Positions 5,999 through 11,985 of a stretch of 12,020 nt of DNA are shown one piece after another. Within the stretch, counting starts at the first letter, position 1, and each line of letters starts with the position of its first letter. Origin of the DNA: Candidatus Sigynarchaeum calidifontis (lineage in GTDB: Archaea > Asgardarchaeota > Lokiarchaeia > Sigyniarchaeales > Sigyniarchaeaceae); assembly GCA_030587475.2 (NCBI GenBank), contig JAUQYZ020000170.1:1-12020 (forward strand), read 5' to 3'. The notes under the pieces are model-generated. The model worked only from the letters and a program-made list of their open reading frames with translations. It had not been told where the DNA came from and did no database searches. The translations under genes were made by a program, and so were the position numbers.

Positions 5999-6080
5999 GT
6001 CAATCAGCTCGCCGGGCCGGATACCGCTGCCCTTGAAAACTCTTGTAATAACGAGCGCATTTCGCGTGGATCCATGGCCG

Positions 6081-6091
6081 CAAACTTATAG
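6081..6091 (+). promoter_or_regulatory. Putative BRE/TATA promoter for the cinA-like gene in the divergent intergenic region
   Basis: CAAACTTATAG ends about 25 nt before ATG 6116. Confidence 0.45.
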
Positions 6092-6115
6092 CCCTTATCA
6101 TCTATTGATCTTATA

Positions 6116-6688
6116 ATGAAACACGTCGATGCGCCCATCGCGGAACTGCTCGTGGCCGCCAAGACCGTCATCGAGACCCTCGCGGGCAAGGAATGCATGC
6201 TCGGCATCTCGGAATCGGTAACCGGTGGCACGATCGCCTCGTACTTGACCCGAATCGACGGCTGCTCCAACATCTTGTTCGCATCACAAGTGCTCTATTC
6301 CAGCCTAGGAAAATCCAGCTTTTGCGAGCTTCCAATGAAGAAGATTGTCGAACAAGGTACCGTCTCAAAGGAAATCATATCGGAGATGCTAGACTGCATG
6401 GCTCGGCGATTTTTCAAGGCACTCGAGGATCCGGACGCGACCCGTCTCGTGATCGCGCCACGGCATTTCGTGTCACTTGCTACTTGCGGCGTGGCTGGCG
6501 ATCCCATCGAGGACTTGCCCCGTGGAACCGTGTTGGAAGGTATCTCCTTGTACCGTGACGGGAAGTGCATAGAGAATGAGATCCGGCATATGCAGCTCGA
6601 AGGTAACCGATGGACGATCATCTCGGGCGCCACGAGGGCGGCGCTTTCCCTTATTCTTGAGAAGGCTTCGATGTTAAGTATTAAATGA
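6116..6688 (+). CDS. CinA C-terminal domain / PncC-like NMN deamidase family protein
   Basis: SESVTGG (cf. AESCTGG), YSSLGK (cf. YSNEAK), GTVS (cf. GAVS), TCGVAG (cf. TTGIAG), PRGTV. Confidence 0.85.
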   Translation: MKHVDAPIAELLVAAKTVIETLAGKECMLGISESVTGGTIASYLTRIDGCSNILFASQVLYSSLGKSSFCELPMKKIVEQGTVSKEIISEMLDCMARRFFKALEDPDATRLVIAPRHFVSLATCGVAGDPIEDLPRGTVLEGISLYRDGKCIENEIRHMQLEGNRWTIISGATRAALSLILEKASMLSIK

Positions 6689-6733
6689 CCCATCATCCTA
6701 AAACAATAGACTTACCTCATCCAACGTGATTCG

Positions 6734-7519
6734 ATGATAAAAATAGTGACAAAAAATCCCCTTAAAAATGAAGGCATCGAAGGGAGGAACATCACGCTAA
6801 TATCTGGTATGGCGGGCATCTGTTCCGTGGGACGCATCGCGGTGGATGCTATAGCTGCCCAATTCAACGCCAAGCTGGTCGCGTCGATGTACCTGGACGA
6901 TTTGCCCGCCCATGTTACGATTGATGAAAATGGCCGTATGAATTTACCCGTCGTGCAACTCTATCTAGCGAAACCTGTCGCCCAGCAAGCCTTTTTGCTC
7001 GTTACAAGCGATTACCAGCCATCATCCAACACGGGGATGTTCAATTTCGTAGATAGCCTGATGAATTACCTGATCGAGACGAATATTTCGTTAATCATCA
7101 GCCTTGGTGCATTTGTCGTGGAACAAATACCCTCAGATCCCAAGATTTTCGTATCGGGAACGGACGAGGCCGTGATCGCCAAGTTTCTCGCGATTGACAA
7201 GAAACGCACAATTCGCATGGAGAACGGCTTGATCTCCGGGGCGAATGGACTCATCCCCGCGTGGGGAGCGATGCTTGGCTTGCCCGGTATATGTTTGCTC
7301 GCGGAGACCGTGCCCATCGTGAAGCGCGATCCAAAGGCGGCGAGGCTGGTCATCGAAGTTTTAAGCAAGCATTTCGTTTTCCCGTTCGATTTTACCTCCA
7401 TTGATAAAGAAATCAAGGAGCTGGAGGCTGCACTTGCCGACTTCCAGCGTGGTGCGCCGGGGGCTGTCGACATCACCGAGCAAAACGCCCGGCGAGATCG
7501 GCAATCGTATATTGGTTAG
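6734..7519 (+). CDS. PAC2 family proteasome assembly chaperone-like protein
   Basis: GMAGICSVGRIAVD (cf. GLPGIGxVGKIAxD), SDYQP, IISLG, ISGANGL, GICLLAET, DPKAA, C-terminal YIG. Confidence 0.88.
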   Translation: MIKIVTKNPLKNEGIEGRNITLISGMAGICSVGRIAVDAIAAQFNAKLVASMYLDDLPAHVTIDENGRMNLPVVQLYLAKPVAQQAFLLVTSDYQPSSNTGMFNFVDSLMNYLIETNISLIISLGAFVVEQIPSDPKIFVSGTDEAVIAKFLAIDKKRTIRMENGLISGANGLIPAWGAMLGLPGICLLAETVPIVKRDPKAARLVIEVLSKHFVFPFDFTSIDKEIKELEAALADFQRGAPGAVDITEQNARRDRQSYIG

Positions 7520-7536: not shown

Positions 7537-7557
7537 CGTCGGGATTCACCCGACGAT
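7535..7557. repeat. Perfect 9-bp inverted repeat containing the stop codon of the 1247-aa gene
   Basis: ATCGTCGGG (7535-7543), loop ATTCA, CCCGACGAT (7549-7557). Confidence 0.9.
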
Positions 7558-10500
7558 GATGTAGTTCGATCCCTTCCGGACGAGAATTTCGTCATCCACG
7601 AGGTCCTGGAGGATCCGGTAGAGCTTGCTGCTCTTCTTTTGCGAGATGATGTTGAGGTCGTTCTTGATCTTGAGGTAATGCAGCTCCCGGACTCCCTCCT
7701 TGCGCTGGCGCTCGATGTACTCCTTTAAAACCGTCCGGTTGACGACCGTGCCCGTGTCCGTGGCCTTCTGGGAATAGCCCGACTTGTCTTTAGGCTGCGT
7801 TACCGAGGAGGGCGCGGCCTTCGATGCCTTCGGGGGCGGGGCCATGGTAGCAGAGCTGCTCGCAGAGCTCGTCGTGGCTCGCTTCACCGCGGCGCTCTTC
7901 TTGATGGGCGCGGGAGCGGGTTGTATCACGCCGGTCGCCTCGATGTTCTTGACCTCCTCTTGTCGAGCCTTCCGCTTCTCTTCCGCCGATTCTTCGATAT
8001 CGCGTCTCGTGGGTTTTTTTGCGAGCACTTGTCGTCGTAACCTTGCATACTGTTCCGTCTGGGCTTTCTTTCTCCGTGATTGGATGAAAATCACGATGGC
8101 GACCGCTGCCGCCCCTCCAATCGAGACGCCGAGAATCAAGGGCAAGTTGATGACCGAGATGCTGATCACTCCCTCGGCCGGGTAGACGACCTGGTTATAA
8201 CCATCGCTGACGACGATGGACAAGTGGTACTCGCCCCATTCTAGCGAGATCCTAGCCAAGTACGTGTCGGGCTCGCCAGAGACGGGCTCGAGCTGGACTT
8301 GTTCCAGGCCGTTCACGATAACGTATTTCGAGACGAGGCTGAATCCGGGTTCCTGGCTCGTGATCCGCACTTTAACATCGACCGACCCCGGTATCAGCAA
8401 GCTGGAAGGGGGAAGGCTGATGATGTCGATCACGGGGAGCCACTTGACAGTGATGGTTCCATTGTATGGAAGTTTTTGCTCTTTATCCCGGAAACGGTCC
8501 TTTACATAGAATGAATACGTGTACACGCCGTGTTGGAGAATGATGCTCCATTTAAAAGTCACCATTTTTGAGTAATCGGACGACGCTGGCTCGAACGTGT
8601 AATTAAAGCCGTTCCACGTGATGCGGAAGTATTCGGGCGCAATTCCCTCGTCGTCCTTGTACGTGAAGGAGATTTCAAGGGTTTGTCCAACCCCGCCGTA
8701 TAAGCGGGGCGTCACCAGCGGGGTGATGGTGGGTGGATTGTTCACGATGACGTGATGCGTCGCCGGGGTGAAGTGCGTGCCATGTATGTCAACGAGGTGG
8801 ATCGTGATGCTGTAGTTGCCTGAAGGAAGGGTGCGCGCGAGGCTAAAACTCGCCCCGGATAGATAATCCACGAATCCACTTGCTTGAAACGCAAGATCGT
8901 TGATCGAAGATTGGAGCGTGCCCCCGTGAAAGTCTTTGCCCTCGATAAATGCATAAGCCCGAACCACGGGCGTGTTCGCTGGGGAGGAATAGGCGGCGGT
9001 AAACACGATATTTTGGCTCGTGGTGAAGAGGCTACCACTAACGGTACTGGAAATGCTCGCGGGGTTGGCTCCCGGCGGGATGAACATGAACGAGACGTTT
9101 GTTATCGGGACTTGAACCTGGGAGAGTGGAAACATCGTGTAATGCTTCCCGTCCCCAAGATTGATGCCACCAGCAATGCCCCCGTTCAGATTAAGAAAGC
9201 TGATGATAATTCTACCATTATTAAGCAAGATTATTCGATAATAATTGAACGTACCGCCTGAAACATAATTCCACACGTCAAGTATTACTTTATCGGGAAA
9301 TAATTGGTAATAACCATCATCGGAACCAATCACGTTTGTAAAAAGATTTATCGACAAGATTGAGGATGGTGCAGTCGAACCTGGAGCTGGTAATGTCGAT
9401 TCATAATTTTTCGTGAACCTGATGAAACCACGCGGAGAGAACACGATGCTCGAGAATGGTAATCCGTAAAAAGTGAAGTTGAATGGAAGATCGATGCTGG
9501 TAATCGTTGTTATTTTATTGGTATATGAAAAACCATAATTTTCAAAGCGAAGCAGCTTGCTTGCGGAATAATTGAATGGTTGGATTAAATTCGGCCCATT
9601 TATCCATTGCGTCGAACTCGTGAATGTCGAGTCATTTGCGAAGACGTAAAATTGCCAACCGGGCGTATTCAAAAATGTCGTGTTCGTGTACCTTAGATCG
9701 AGCTTGAATTCACAGCCGATATAGCAATTGACTCCTGCACCCGATACTTTGATGGGGTATAAGTTTTGTACCGATCCAGACACGTTGAATATGACCACCA
9801 GGTTCGCCGGTCCATCGTTATCAAGATCTCGGTATGTAAACCGGATGGTCACGTTCGTGAAGTTGATCCAGCCTTGCGTCGGGTCGATCGTGAGGTTCTC
9901 GATCGTCGGCGCGTGCGTGTTTTCGTAAGTGACAAGTGGAATGGTGTTTATTGGTGAATGCCACCACCCGCCAGGGCCGAGCACGTGGAACCGGTGTGAA
10001 TGCGTTCCCGGCTGGAGAAATTGGATCGAGTATGTGTAGACCTTCCCGTCCATGAGGTTTAAATCGAGGGGATCTGCACCAGCCATGGTGCGGTTAGTGC
10101 CGTCGAGCTCCACGAGGATCGCATATGGGCCCTTGTTCTCGATATCTTGTAGAGTGAGCGTGAAGTTGAAGATGGTCACTTGGGTGCCAGATGCCGGTGT
10201 TATGGTGTAATTCAATATACGCGGGCTGGTAGTGAATCCATAGTTGAAAACGAACGAACGATTCGCAATACTGGACGAATGACTAAAAGCGGTGAAATGG
10301 ATGCCGTCGCCGAAGTTCACGCCCATCGATTCGCTCATGGCGAAGTCAACGGTCACGTGGTGGAAGTTGAGTAGAAGAGTCCCGTTCCGGTAGATGACGT
10401 ATTGATAGGACGCATCGTAAGTCTTTGTATAAAAATAATAGTAGTCGTGAAGTACAAGTTGTTGCTCGATGAGAACGTAATCGGGAGTGATGAGCACGTT

Positions 10501-11289
10501 CAGGTCTGATGAGCCAGTCGGGGTTATGTTCCACGTGCTGTTCGGGCAAGCGGTTATCGTGTATTGGGCACGCGCCCCCTTGCCGGGAAGGTTGATCGGT
10601 TGTTCATTCGTGGAACTCCACGGGAGCACATTAAATCGCAAGAAACCGAAGTGCGACACTTGCACGATATTGAAGGTTTTGCCGTAGAACGTGAATTCAA
10701 AGCCGAGCGGGATGTCATACATCAAACGACCCGCTTGGCCTGTTGGTTCGGTCGCCGCACTCGAATTTAGCCATCTGAATGGCACCTCTACCCTCGTATA
10801 ATTCCGCAGAGCTGCGAGACTCGGTCCCGGGAGCGAGCCAACTGCCGGATACCTCGTAGTGCTCGTGCCGTTCGACGCGACGAAGTAATGCGAGTAGTTT
10901 CCGATGGTCGGGAGCGTGATGACGGCCTGGTATCGCACGCCGGCCACGTAATTCGGCTCTACGTACGGCACCTTCGACATGATGTGGATGGTTGTCCAGT
11001 TCTCGTGGACGACTGTGAGGTTAATATAAGCAGGCGTTGCATTCGAGCTGCTTTGATAGGTGATCGAAAAGTTGAAGGGTGTGAGATTCGCGTAGCCGAA
11101 CGAAGCGTTGAGTCCAGGTGCTGAAAGGACGGGATCGTCGGCCGATTCTTCCAAGTGATCGGCCCCGTCGAAAGCAGGCCTGCTTGCGATGTTCGGTCGT
11201 GTGTTATTGAGCACGCAAAACAAGATCGGGATGCAGACCAGGCACGCGATGGTACAATACCAGCGAGTTGGACGTGGCGTGGATCTCAT
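7546..11289 (-). CDS. Large type I single-pass membrane glycoprotein with Ig-like repeats, two NIDO-like modules and a cytosolic C-terminal winged-helix-like domain
   Basis: 1247-aa uninterrupted ORF. Basic then hydrophobic N-terminus. About 30 N-x-S/T sequons by manual count before the TM helix. TM helix at aa 1049-1069 followed by QSRRKK. Low-complexity linker, then a compact 66-aa C-terminal domain. Confidence 0.85.
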   Translation of the reverse strand: MRSTPRPTRWYCTIACLVCIPILFCVLNNTRPNIASRPAFDGADHLEESADDPVLSAPGLNASFGYANLTPFNFSITYQSSSNATPAYINLTVVHENWTTIHIMSKVPYVEPNYVAGVRYQAVITLPTIGNYSHYFVASNGTSTTRYPAVGSLPGPSLAALRNYTRVEVPFRWLNSSAATEPTGQAGRLMYDIPLGFEFTFYGKTFNIVQVSHFGFLRFNVLPWSSTNEQPINLPGKGARAQYTITACPNSTWNITPTGSSDLNVLITPDYVLIEQQLVLHDYYYFYTKTYDASYQYVIYRNGTLLLNFHHVTVDFAMSESMGVNFGDGIHFTAFSHSSSIANRSFVFNYGFTTSPRILNYTITPASGTQVTIFNFTLTLQDIENKGPYAILVELDGTNRTMAGADPLDLNLMDGKVYTYSIQFLQPGTHSHRFHVLGPGGWWHSPINTIPLVTYENTHAPTIENLTIDPTQGWINFTNVTIRFTYRDLDNDGPANLVVIFNVSGSVQNLYPIKVSGAGVNCYIGCEFKLDLRYTNTTFLNTPGWQFYVFANDSTFTSSTQWINGPNLIQPFNYSASKLLRFENYGFSYTNKITTITSIDLPFNFTFYGLPFSSIVFSPRGFIRFTKNYESTLPAPGSTAPSSILSINLFTNVIGSDDGYYQLFPDKVILDVWNYVSGGTFNYYRIILLNNGRIIISFLNLNGGIAGGINLGDGKHYTMFPLSQVQVPITNVSFMFIPPGANPASISSTVSGSLFTTSQNIVFTAAYSSPANTPVVRAYAFIEGKDFHGGTLQSSINDLAFQASGFVDYLSGASFSLARTLPSGNYSITIHLVDIHGTHFTPATHHVIVNNPPTITPLVTPRLYGGVGQTLEISFTYKDDEGIAPEYFRITWNGFNYTFEPASSDYSKMVTFKWSIILQHGVYTYSFYVKDRFRDKEQKLPYNGTITVKWLPVIDIISLPPSSLLIPGSVDVKVRITSQEPGFSLVSKYVIVNGLEQVQLEPVSGEPDTYLARISLEWGEYHLSIVVSDGYNQVVYPAEGVISISVINLPLILGVSIGGAAAVAIVIFIQSRRKKAQTEQYARLRRQVLAKKPTRRDIEESAEEKRKARQEEVKNIEATGVIQPAPAPIKKSAAVKRATTSSASSSATMAPPPKASKAAPSSVTQPKDKSGYSQKATDTGTVVNRTVLKEYIERQRKEGVRELHYLKIKNDLNIISQKKSSKLYRILQDLVDDEILVRKGSNYIIVG

Positions 11290-11379: not shown

Positions 11380-11985
11380 GTGACCGAGTCGCAAAAGATG
11401 GTGGAATTCTACAAGATCAAGTGCGTGGTCGTCGGTGCGAACTTCGTCGGGAAGACCTCTCTCATACGCCGTTACGTGACGCGTAAATTTACCAGCGATT
11501 ACCAGGCCACCATCGGGATGGATATCACGGTCAAGGAAGTTGACCTCACGTTCGGCTTGATCACCCACCATGTCACCATATCGCTGCACGACCTTGCGGG
11601 CCAGTATCGTTTCGAATCCCTTCATAAGAATTTTCTCAAGGGAGCGGACGCGGCGATCATCGTCGTTGCGCAAGATGACCCAGACAGTCTCTACGGTAAA
11701 AAAGACGTGCATAGTGACAAGGCCATCAGCATCGCGGATTGGGTCGCTCGAATCGACGAAGCGAACCAGCCCAAGTACGTACCGAAGATATTGGTAATTA
11801 ACAAGAGTGATTTACCGACAAATCTCCTCAAGGACGAGGAGATCAAGGTCGTATGTGAAAAGCACAAGATCCTGGGGGCATACCGAACCTCCGCGAAGAC
11901 CGGCGAGAATGTCAGCAAGGTATTCCAAACCGTGGCTGGAATCCCACTCGTGCGCGAGAATATCGAAGTATTACCAACGGTTTAA
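11380..11985 (+). CDS. Ras-superfamily (Rab-like) small GTPase
   Basis: G1 GANFVGKTS, G2 YQATIG, G3 DLAGQ, G4 NKSD, G5 TSAK. Rab-like IGMDI, RFESL and FLKGA. GTG start with GGGTG 7 nt upstream; an alternative ATG is at 11398. Confidence 0.95.
   Translation: MTESQKMVEFYKIKCVVVGANFVGKTSLIRRYVTRKFTSDYQATIGMDITVKEVDLTFGLITHHVTISLHDLAGQYRFESLHKNFLKGADAAIIVVAQDDPDSLYGKKDVHSDKAISIADWVARIDEANQPKYVPKILVINKSDLPTNLLKDEEIKVVCEKHKILGAYRTSAKTGENVSKVFQTVAGIPLVRENIEVLPTV

Follow-up and report, generated by a model that had tools for sequence, protein, structure and literature searches.

The stretch of DNA analysed here, which we call the window, is 12,020 nucleotides long and is contig C55 of an Asgard archaeal genome assembly (G000; 5.0 Mb, 89% complete). 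The closest database relatives of its proteins are labelled Candidatus Sigynarchaeota or Sigynarchaeum, or Promethearchaeota. No closer relatives of eukaryotes are known than the Asgard archaea, and next to nothing is known of how their elaborate surface proteins communicate with the cell interior. On its minus strand the window carries a gene (7546..11289; an open reading frame of 1247 amino acids plus stop, with orthologues) whose product is best explained, judging from its sequence, as a heavily N-glycosylated type I single-pass surface protein with a cytoplasmic winged-helix tail. The subject of this report is that tail, a conserved module that this protein shares with others of quite different build.

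From the N-terminus onwards, and with all features on the minus strand, the product begins with a signal sequence or anchor (residues 1-27; 11209..11289), which was recognized by hydropathy and in the orthologues and consists of three arginines followed by an 18-residue hydrophobic core. This is followed by an ectodomain (residues 28-1048; 8146..11208) that sequence, model and fold searches describe as a chain of beta-sandwich modules with 29 N-glycosylation sequons, and then by a transmembrane (TM) helix (residues 1049-1071; 8077..8145), where hydropathy peaks at 2.67 and after which 11 of 25 residues are lysine or arginine. On the far side of the membrane come a juxtamembrane basic stop-transfer and an E/R/K-rich stretch, predicted from sequence to be a charged helix (residues 1072-1120; 7930..8076), a conserved basic linear motif, KKSAAVKRA (residues 1130-1138; 7876..7902), which lies 117 residues before the C-terminus, and a second conserved motif, PKDKSGYSQKATDTGT (residues 1166-1181; 7747..7794), identified in the alignment and predicted to be disordered (predicted local distance difference test score, pLDDT, <50). 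The protein ends, immediately downstream of this motif, in the winged-helix domain itself (residues 1182-1247; 7549..7746), which was assigned from the topology of an AlphaFold2 model and from fold matches and has a net charge of +5. The linker as a whole (residues 1072-1181) is rich in A/K/S/R/T/P and has a net charge of +14.

A hydropathy scan of all 1247 residues found two hydrophobic segments only, at residues 8-31 (preceded by the three arginines) and 1049-1071. The 1017 residues between them hold 29 N-x-S/T sequons, as against 12.0 +/- 3.1 in composition-matched shuffles, and a single sequon lies C-terminal of the TM helix. Because of this distribution and the positive-inside rule, we place the large domain outside the cell and the C-terminus in the cytoplasm. 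In the database, the gene for this protein is called from an internal GTG (P0002; 1222 residues), which leaves out the signal sequence. Since the hydrophobic N-terminus is retained by the orthologues P0003, P0008 and P0011, the ATG at 11289 is the likelier start. A preliminary description of the window, made from its letters, had already proposed this open reading frame and its layout, with a signal peptide, a beta-rich and sequon-rich ectodomain, one TM helix (placed at 8083-8145), a basic stop-transfer, a Pro/Ala/Ser/Thr linker and a compact C-terminal domain (placed at 7546-7746). All of these elements were found, the positions given for the TM helix and the tail were right to within a few bases, and the cytoplasmic C-terminus and the winged-helix character of the tail, with its elements in the order that had been named, were borne out as well.

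The fold of the tail was assigned using an AlphaFold2 model, computed from an alignment of 15 tails (A1, 88 residues), which had a mean pLDDT of 83.5, with 62 of the 88 residues at a pLDDT of 90 or more. The model contains helices at residues 1185-1197, 1205-1211 and 1217-1232 and strands at 1202-1204, 1236-1239 and 1242-1245 (in alignment numbering, helices 26-38, 46-52 and 58-73, and strands 43-45, 77-80 and 83-86). Their order, helix-strand-helix-helix-strand-strand, is the canonical winged-helix topology, and the approximately 20 residues N-terminal of the domain are disordered in the model. When the model was used in a structural search, 443 PDB representatives were returned at Z >=5, with winged helices making up all of the top matches and 50 of the best 50 obtained with Foldseek and VIA. 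The Foldseek matches (best E 0.018) included the MCM4 winged helix, the cullin WHB domain, Sulfolobus PBP2, FNR/CRP, Odinarchaeota Vps25 and Z-alpha. We therefore have high confidence in the model-based assignment of the tail as a winged helix. Sequence searches assign the domain to no known family: the whole window protein (P0001) matched no Pfam family at E <=0.01, and a PDB sequence and profile search with the tail gave no significant match, the best being the winged helix of RNase R (E 0.0012).

To follow the tail beyond the window, we searched 1.84 billion representative proteins with the tail profile (A1), without a word index. This yielded 44 proteins at E <=0.001, 35 of them at E <=1e-10, with the domain C-terminal in 44 of 44. 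Between the window protein and its orthologues, identity is 31-52% in the ectodomain, 18-73% in the linker and 60-98% in the last 81 residues (a range that leaves out the frameshifted P0011, with 53% tail identity), making the tail the best-conserved region of the protein. The carriers fall into three classes. The first comprises type I receptors with unrelated ectodomains, which may be the Ig-like and beta-rich chain of the window protein, FN3 arrays (P0014, P0024, P0042), PQQ/FG-GAP beta-propellers with bacterial TSP3 repeats (P0009, P0010, P0013) or TSP3 repeats alone (P0025, P0036). The second is a soluble protein of about 370 residues, and the third consists of small proteins with two TM helices. 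Further carriers are a polytopic protein (P0043) and an LRR-containing protein (P0045), and in some carriers the ectodomain belongs to no recognized family. The preliminary description, which had called the protein a one-component receptor with an output domain, had proposed to look for the tail beneath different ectodomains; its recurrence there, and its conservation above that of the ectodomain, are in favour of that description. Of that phrase, the cytoplasmic winged helix beneath an ectodomain stands. As the tail is also found on soluble and two-TM proteins, however, it is a shared cassette and not the window receptor's own output domain, and common docking or tethering fits better than a dedicated one-component switch. 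The one-component receptor is one of several readings that the data allow.

Four copies of the tail were detected in the window's own genome. One belongs to the soluble class and is a single-copy protein of 373 residues (L002 580-1701, corresponding to about 10848-11969 of contig C22; plus strand), in which a helical N-terminal domain of about 230 residues is followed by the same basic motif and winged-helix tail. Its orthologues, at 67-86% identity, are confined to the Sigynarchaeum lineage, and its N-terminal domain had no match in Pfam and no usable match in the Atlas. Another is a two-TM protein of 282 residues (L004 1471-2319, about 42508-43356 of contig C63; minus strand), in which two TM helices at the N-terminus are followed by a long linker rich in Pro/Ala/Lys and by a diverged tail that ends in K-K-G-S-K-Y-I-I. 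In addition, two more type I receptors of the propeller and TSP3 type end at contig edges, at or just past the TM helix (L011, 8264-10119 of contig C20; L010, 1-2230 of contig C193), and an orphan tail end lies at the edge of contig C157 (L003 1501-1593, positions 18505-18597). It is probable that the common cytoplasmic region breaks the assembly and that the tail-bearing receptors of each genome are undercounted. We also considered recent gene conversion between tails and rejected it, as the C157 fragment is 85% identical in DNA over 93 nt; the conservation of the tail therefore reflects selection and not recent copying.

Across 400 Asgard genomes, the tail domain was found in the window's family (f1) alone, in three genomes (G000, G281, G282). 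In the fourth genome of the family, the single-contig G280, the orthologue (L018 1471-2817, minus strand, contig C1) ends at 448 residues, in the middle of the ectodomain. It is near-identical to the tail-bearing P0012 (1250 residues), with which it shares its N-terminus, and the missing tail is probably the result of an assembly join or a frameshift. The tail family is lineage-specific, and this small range limits evolutionary claims: it is not the ancestor of a eukaryotic system. In the literature we found no description of an adhesin-like type I protein that ends in a cytoplasmic winged helix, nor of the tail family. In line with the preliminary description, which did not recognize the architecture as characterized, it appears to be undescribed, a new winged-helix family in a new modular arrangement of membrane-anchored winged-helix proteins. 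In three of the receptors (P0009, at about residues 640-700; P0010, about 700-755; P0014, about 500-545) there is an extra compact stretch between the TM helix and the cassette, whose end looks winged-helix-like by eye. It was set aside after an hhalign comparison with the tail found no similarity (probability 0.3).

The cassette has a regular anatomy. Behind the TM helix, each receptor class has a basic stop-transfer and then a stretch rich in E/R/K whose sequence suggests a charged helix similar to that of the window protein. The basic motif that comes next is KKSAAVKRA in the receptors and K-S-S-x-x-G-x-F-S-K/R-K-K-x-T in the soluble class. A strict pattern places it 112-117 residues ahead of the C-terminus in both classes, and it can be seen to align in most of the other members. 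Next comes a Pro/Ala/Ser/Thr spacer, about 45 residues long and nearly constant in length, and then the receptor-class motif that precedes the winged helix, P-K-D-K-S-K/G-Y/F-x-x-K-x-T-D-x-G-T. A reading of the basic motif as a WH2/thymosin (LKKT-like) element was set aside, since eight linker segments gave no Pfam WH2 match at E <=10, and a genome-wide WH2 scan gave no match on the window gene. The cassette is also strongly basic. The net charge of the 66-residue winged helix is +4 to +14 in 33 of 33 members counted, and in the receptor class and the soluble class the 69 residues upstream of it have a mean charge of +6 to +7. Near-invariant basic residues are found in the second helix (K50), at the start of and along the third (K60, K63, R/K66) and in the wing (R/K79, K80, together with G81 and S82; tail-alignment numbering). 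In winged-helix proteins these are the elements that contact DNA, the third helix and the wing being the usual sites of nucleic-acid contact.

One basic cytoplasmic module that occurs on many ectodomains and on a soluble protein, under the strongest constraint, is the signature of a common intracellular contact, and the sequences suggest that the cassette is a shared docking module. Charged helix, basic motif, near-fixed spacer and the basic winged helix at the extreme C-terminus would together form a common intracellular docking plug, combining varied modules outside the cell with one contact inside. We put at roughly 45% the probability that this contact is a polyanion, most likely DNA. In that case, the winged helix and the basic linker, on a flexible tether of about 110 residues, would link surface proteins to nucleoid DNA, serving either to tether the membrane to the chromosome or to regulate a single shared target from the membrane. 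We favour DNA because the positive charge of the winged helix is uniformly high, because the conserved basic residues sit on the second helix, the third helix and the wing, and because the linker is itself basic and Ala/Lys/Ser/Pro-rich. It is further favoured because the structural neighbours of highest identity (19-21%) include several nucleic-acid-binding winged helices, among them those of RNase R, DNA-bound DpnI, QsrR-DNA and SarS, with human MCM4 at 19%, and because the single near-significant PDB profile match is the RNase R winged helix.

Several considerations weigh against this assignment. DNA is a putative target, and a basic surface would fit RNA or anionic lipids equally well. If the cassette served transcription control, a single DNA-binding specificity common to several surface receptors would be an unusual design. 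In addition, a small, lineage-specific family offers little evidence from covariation or genomic context, and the neighbouring genes, which encode PAC2, CinA and a Ras-like GTPase, give no DNA-related hint. Finally, the best geometric matches to the tail are protein-binding domains. In VIA alignments these are the C-terminal winged helices of the kleisins Scc1 (1w1w_E, Z 9.1, root-mean-square deviation (rmsd) 1.6 A over 61 residues), JetA (8dk1_E, Z 8.7) and ScpA (4i99_C, Z 8.3) and that of 6qpq (Z 9.0), at 6-7% identity. The N-terminal winged helix of RNase R (Z 9.0 and 8.3, 19% identity), the DpnI winged helix on DNA (Z 8.5 and 8.1, 20-21% identity) and the MCM4 winged helix (Z 8.7) score within about one Z unit of these, so that the fold is established but the subfamily is not.

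The main rival to a polyanion is a protein partner. The winged helix, with or without the basic motif, may dock onto one cytoplasmic protein common to the carriers; candidates would be a cytoskeletal filament, a component of ESCRT-II/III, the ATPase head of an SMC-type protein and a small GTPase. Different adhesion-type receptors could in this way be coupled to the same machinery, much as chemoreceptors are coupled to CheA-CheW and integrin tails to talin. We consider this tentatively possible. A conserved tail beneath varied ectodomains is the pattern expected of a common protein partner, and a linear motif at a fixed distance upstream of the domain is typical of peptide-mediated docking. The top structural matches include the SMC-head-binding C-terminal winged helix of kleisins and also MukE/F, Stn1 and cullin WHB. 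A Pfam scan of 30 tail members returned scattered sub-threshold matches to winged-helix families (ANAPC2, Cullin_Nedd8, MAGE, RTP, SarA/Rot and EutK_C), of which the first three count towards protein docking. DNA- and RNA-binding winged helices, however, reach equal structural scores, a uniformly high positive charge is no general trait of protein-binding winged helices, and the partner is still hypothetical. Although the kleisins Scc1, ScpA, JetA and MukF likewise carry their winged helix at the extreme C-terminus past a long disordered linker, and give the best geometric fit, their scores are also tied with that of the ORC winged helix, they are soluble, and the window protein, which apart from the cassette consists of ectodomain and TM helix, has no kleisin N-terminal domain and no match to a kleisin family in Pfam. 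The preliminary description had named ESCRT-II and CdvB as examples of winged helices that act in protein interactions. That comparison found no specific support here: the tail is a single winged helix with no Pfam match to ESCRT-II, and Odinarchaeota Vps25 (7pb9), at Z 7.9 and an rmsd of 5.8 A, is tied with dozens of other winged helices. With chemotaxis receptors and integrin-type adhesion receptors, the likeness is one of design principle only, variable ectodomains over one conserved cytoplasmic module; the cytoplasmic fold is different, and a CheW/CheA- or talin-type partner is not known for the tail.

A further point that bears on protein docking is the gene next to that of the receptor. 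A Ras/Rab-like small GTPase (11380..11985, plus strand; Pfam Ras, E 1.6e-28) lies head-to-head with it across a 90-bp AT-rich spacer, an arrangement seen at 4 of 4 loci. The gene order including the GTPase is conserved around the orthologues P0008 and P0015, and around P0007 with some inserted genes. Since the whole 15 kb is collinear, however, the pairing is not independent evidence of a functional link. The GTPase was considered as the partner of the tail and set aside, the arrangement being kept only inside the fully collinear region.

The strong positive charge of domain and linker in all members would also suit a different role, in which winged helix and linker, both of them basic, attach to the anionic cytoplasmic face of the membrane or else serve as a signal for sorting or retention, gathering the proteins into patches, protrusions or vesicles. 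Outside the soluble class of about 370 residues, nearly every tail carrier has predicted TM segments, and C-terminal modules common to many surface proteins are often sorting signals. PGF-CTERM and LPXTG-type sorting signals act outside the membrane. We nevertheless judge such a role quite unlikely, given that the same cassette is found on the soluble protein, that a folded and conserved winged helix with specific invariant residues exceeds the needs of a charge patch, and that a tether of some 110 residues puts the domain far from the membrane.

The relationships among the tails were also compared. In a tree of tails, the soluble tails form one clade and most two-TM tails a distant one (38% and 29% identity to the receptor tail, respectively), and the receptor tails intermix across ectodomain types: labels for NIDO-like, propeller, FN3 and TSP3 ectodomains required as many changes on this tree, which is of low resolution owing to the short domain, as did shuffled labels. 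The tails cluster by lineage and not by ectodomain, as would be expected under mutual compatibility. If the winged helix mediated homotypic assembly, it could join receptor tails, the soluble protein and the two-TM protein to one another in a receptor-adaptor logic like that of TIR or death domains, and one and the same genome does encode receptors, a conserved soluble protein and a small membrane protein that all bear the domain. We hold this to be very unlikely. Separate and diverged clades would be unusual for co-evolving homotypic partners, two partners that each have a net charge of +5 to +7 are poorly suited to self-association unless a polyanion bridges them, and the reading is conjectural. 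A two-copy complex prediction for the tail (alignment A1), for which controls were absent, had a score of 0.00 and speaks neither for nor against self-association.

A DNA-binding receptor tail of the kind we favour has partial parallels among characterized membrane proteins. The bacterial regulators ToxR, CadC and TcpP are, like the window protein, single-pass proteins in which an extracytoplasmic domain is joined directly to a cytoplasmic winged helix, without a kinase or phosphorelay. These are, however, type II proteins with an N-terminal winged helix-turn-helix of the OmpR/PhoB type (Pfam Trans_reg_C) and a small periplasmic sensor, whereas the window protein has type I topology and a signal sequence, together with an adhesin-like ectodomain of 1020 residues, a tether of 110 residues, and a C-terminal winged helix that is shared by many paralogues and whose DNA binding is putative. 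It also had no match to Trans_reg_C at E <=1, and we do not assign it to this group. In eukaryotes, the MSC domain of MAN1/LEM2 (Heh1/Heh2) is a winged helix of a membrane protein, situated beside disordered basic regions, that tethers chromatin to the inner nuclear membrane and docks CHMP7. Its layout of TM helix, loop, TM helix, linker and winged helix may be loosely comparable to that of the small two-TM tail proteins. The window protein differs in having a single TM helix and a huge extracellular part, and the occurrence of the tail in a single Asgard family allows no claim of ancestry. The tail had no match to the MSC family in Pfam at E <=1, nor was MSC among its 50 best structural matches. 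A third comparison is with FtsK, a membrane-anchored protein that ends, past a long flexible linker, in a DNA-binding winged helix, the gamma domain. Its anchor is polytopic, a translocase motor that the window protein does not have lies between linker and winged helix, and Pfam scans found no sequence similarity between FtsK gamma and the tail.

Were DNA binding by the cassette to hold for its carriers as a set, adhesion-type receptors with Ig-like, integrin-like propeller, FN3 and TSP3 ectodomains would be physically wired to the chromosome through their shared tail, either as a permanent tether resembling LEM2/MAN1 or LINC or as a releasable regulator of the Notch or SREBP kind, and the soluble and two-TM paralogues would compete for the same DNA sites or serve as adaptors there. 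In this specific form the proposal is speculative and, in our view, unlikely. Whatever its partner, a set of adhesion-type receptors with one conserved, folded cytoplasmic module gives a handle, in the form of a tail of 66-123 residues, on the coupling of surface to interior. Should the partner prove to be DNA, surface and chromosome of a eukaryote-like archaeon would be directly linked; should it prove to be a protein, a hub of receptor coupling would be identified.

Turning to the rest of the window, the gene order is S13-S4-S11, TPR, DHH-like, aminotransferase, CinA, PAC2, the receptor gene and the head-to-head GTPase. The CinA-domain gene lies at 6116-6688 on the plus strand (Pfam, E 6.8e-20) and the neighbouring PAC2 gene at 6734-7519. 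In the region of the CinA gene (6004-6696), two open reading frames of 89 and 133 residues that overlap this gene on the opposite strand belong to no family and are probably spurious.

The ectodomain contains an internal duplication, residues 48-348 against 456-736 (BLASTP E 3e-11, 25% identity over 312 columns). The first repeat unit (10246..11148, minus strand) combines an Ig-like sandwich with a larger beta-rich module bearing the motif F-x-F-T-F-Y-G, and the second (9082..9924, minus strand) is its paralogue. The F-x-F-x-F-Y-G pattern is putatively NIDO-like; the whole window protein had no match to Pfam NIDO at E <=1. A model of residues 45-455, a unit of 411 residues, is all-beta with three modules (pLDDT 82.4). 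The first module is a generic Ig/CBM-like sandwich (Z 9-11 to many structures), and the middle module is folded within the unit, with structural match lists filled by Ig-like domains. The third, an Ig-like module at residues 355-455 (9925..10227, minus strand), is a clear homologue of the accessory beta module of the Paenibacillus nanensis GH9 xanthanase, both in structure (6fhn_A 819-919; VIA Z 16.4, rmsd 1.1 A over 100 aligned residues, 33% identity) and in sequence (6fhj_A 808-899; phmmer E 2.1e-10). The xanthanase module may correspond to the xanthan-binding CBM84. A search of the Atlas with the ectodomain returned unnamed clusters only. An adhesin-like, possibly glycan-binding surface protein is a fair description of the whole; to speak of a receptor goes a step further. 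Among 154 genomes of the order, 36 encode large surface proteins with modules of the ectodomain type, and the module type of residues 355-455 is repeated many times in giant surface proteins of up to about 3600 residues. Given this range, and the restriction of the tail to family f1, the window protein joins a widespread toolkit of surface modules to a family-specific tail.

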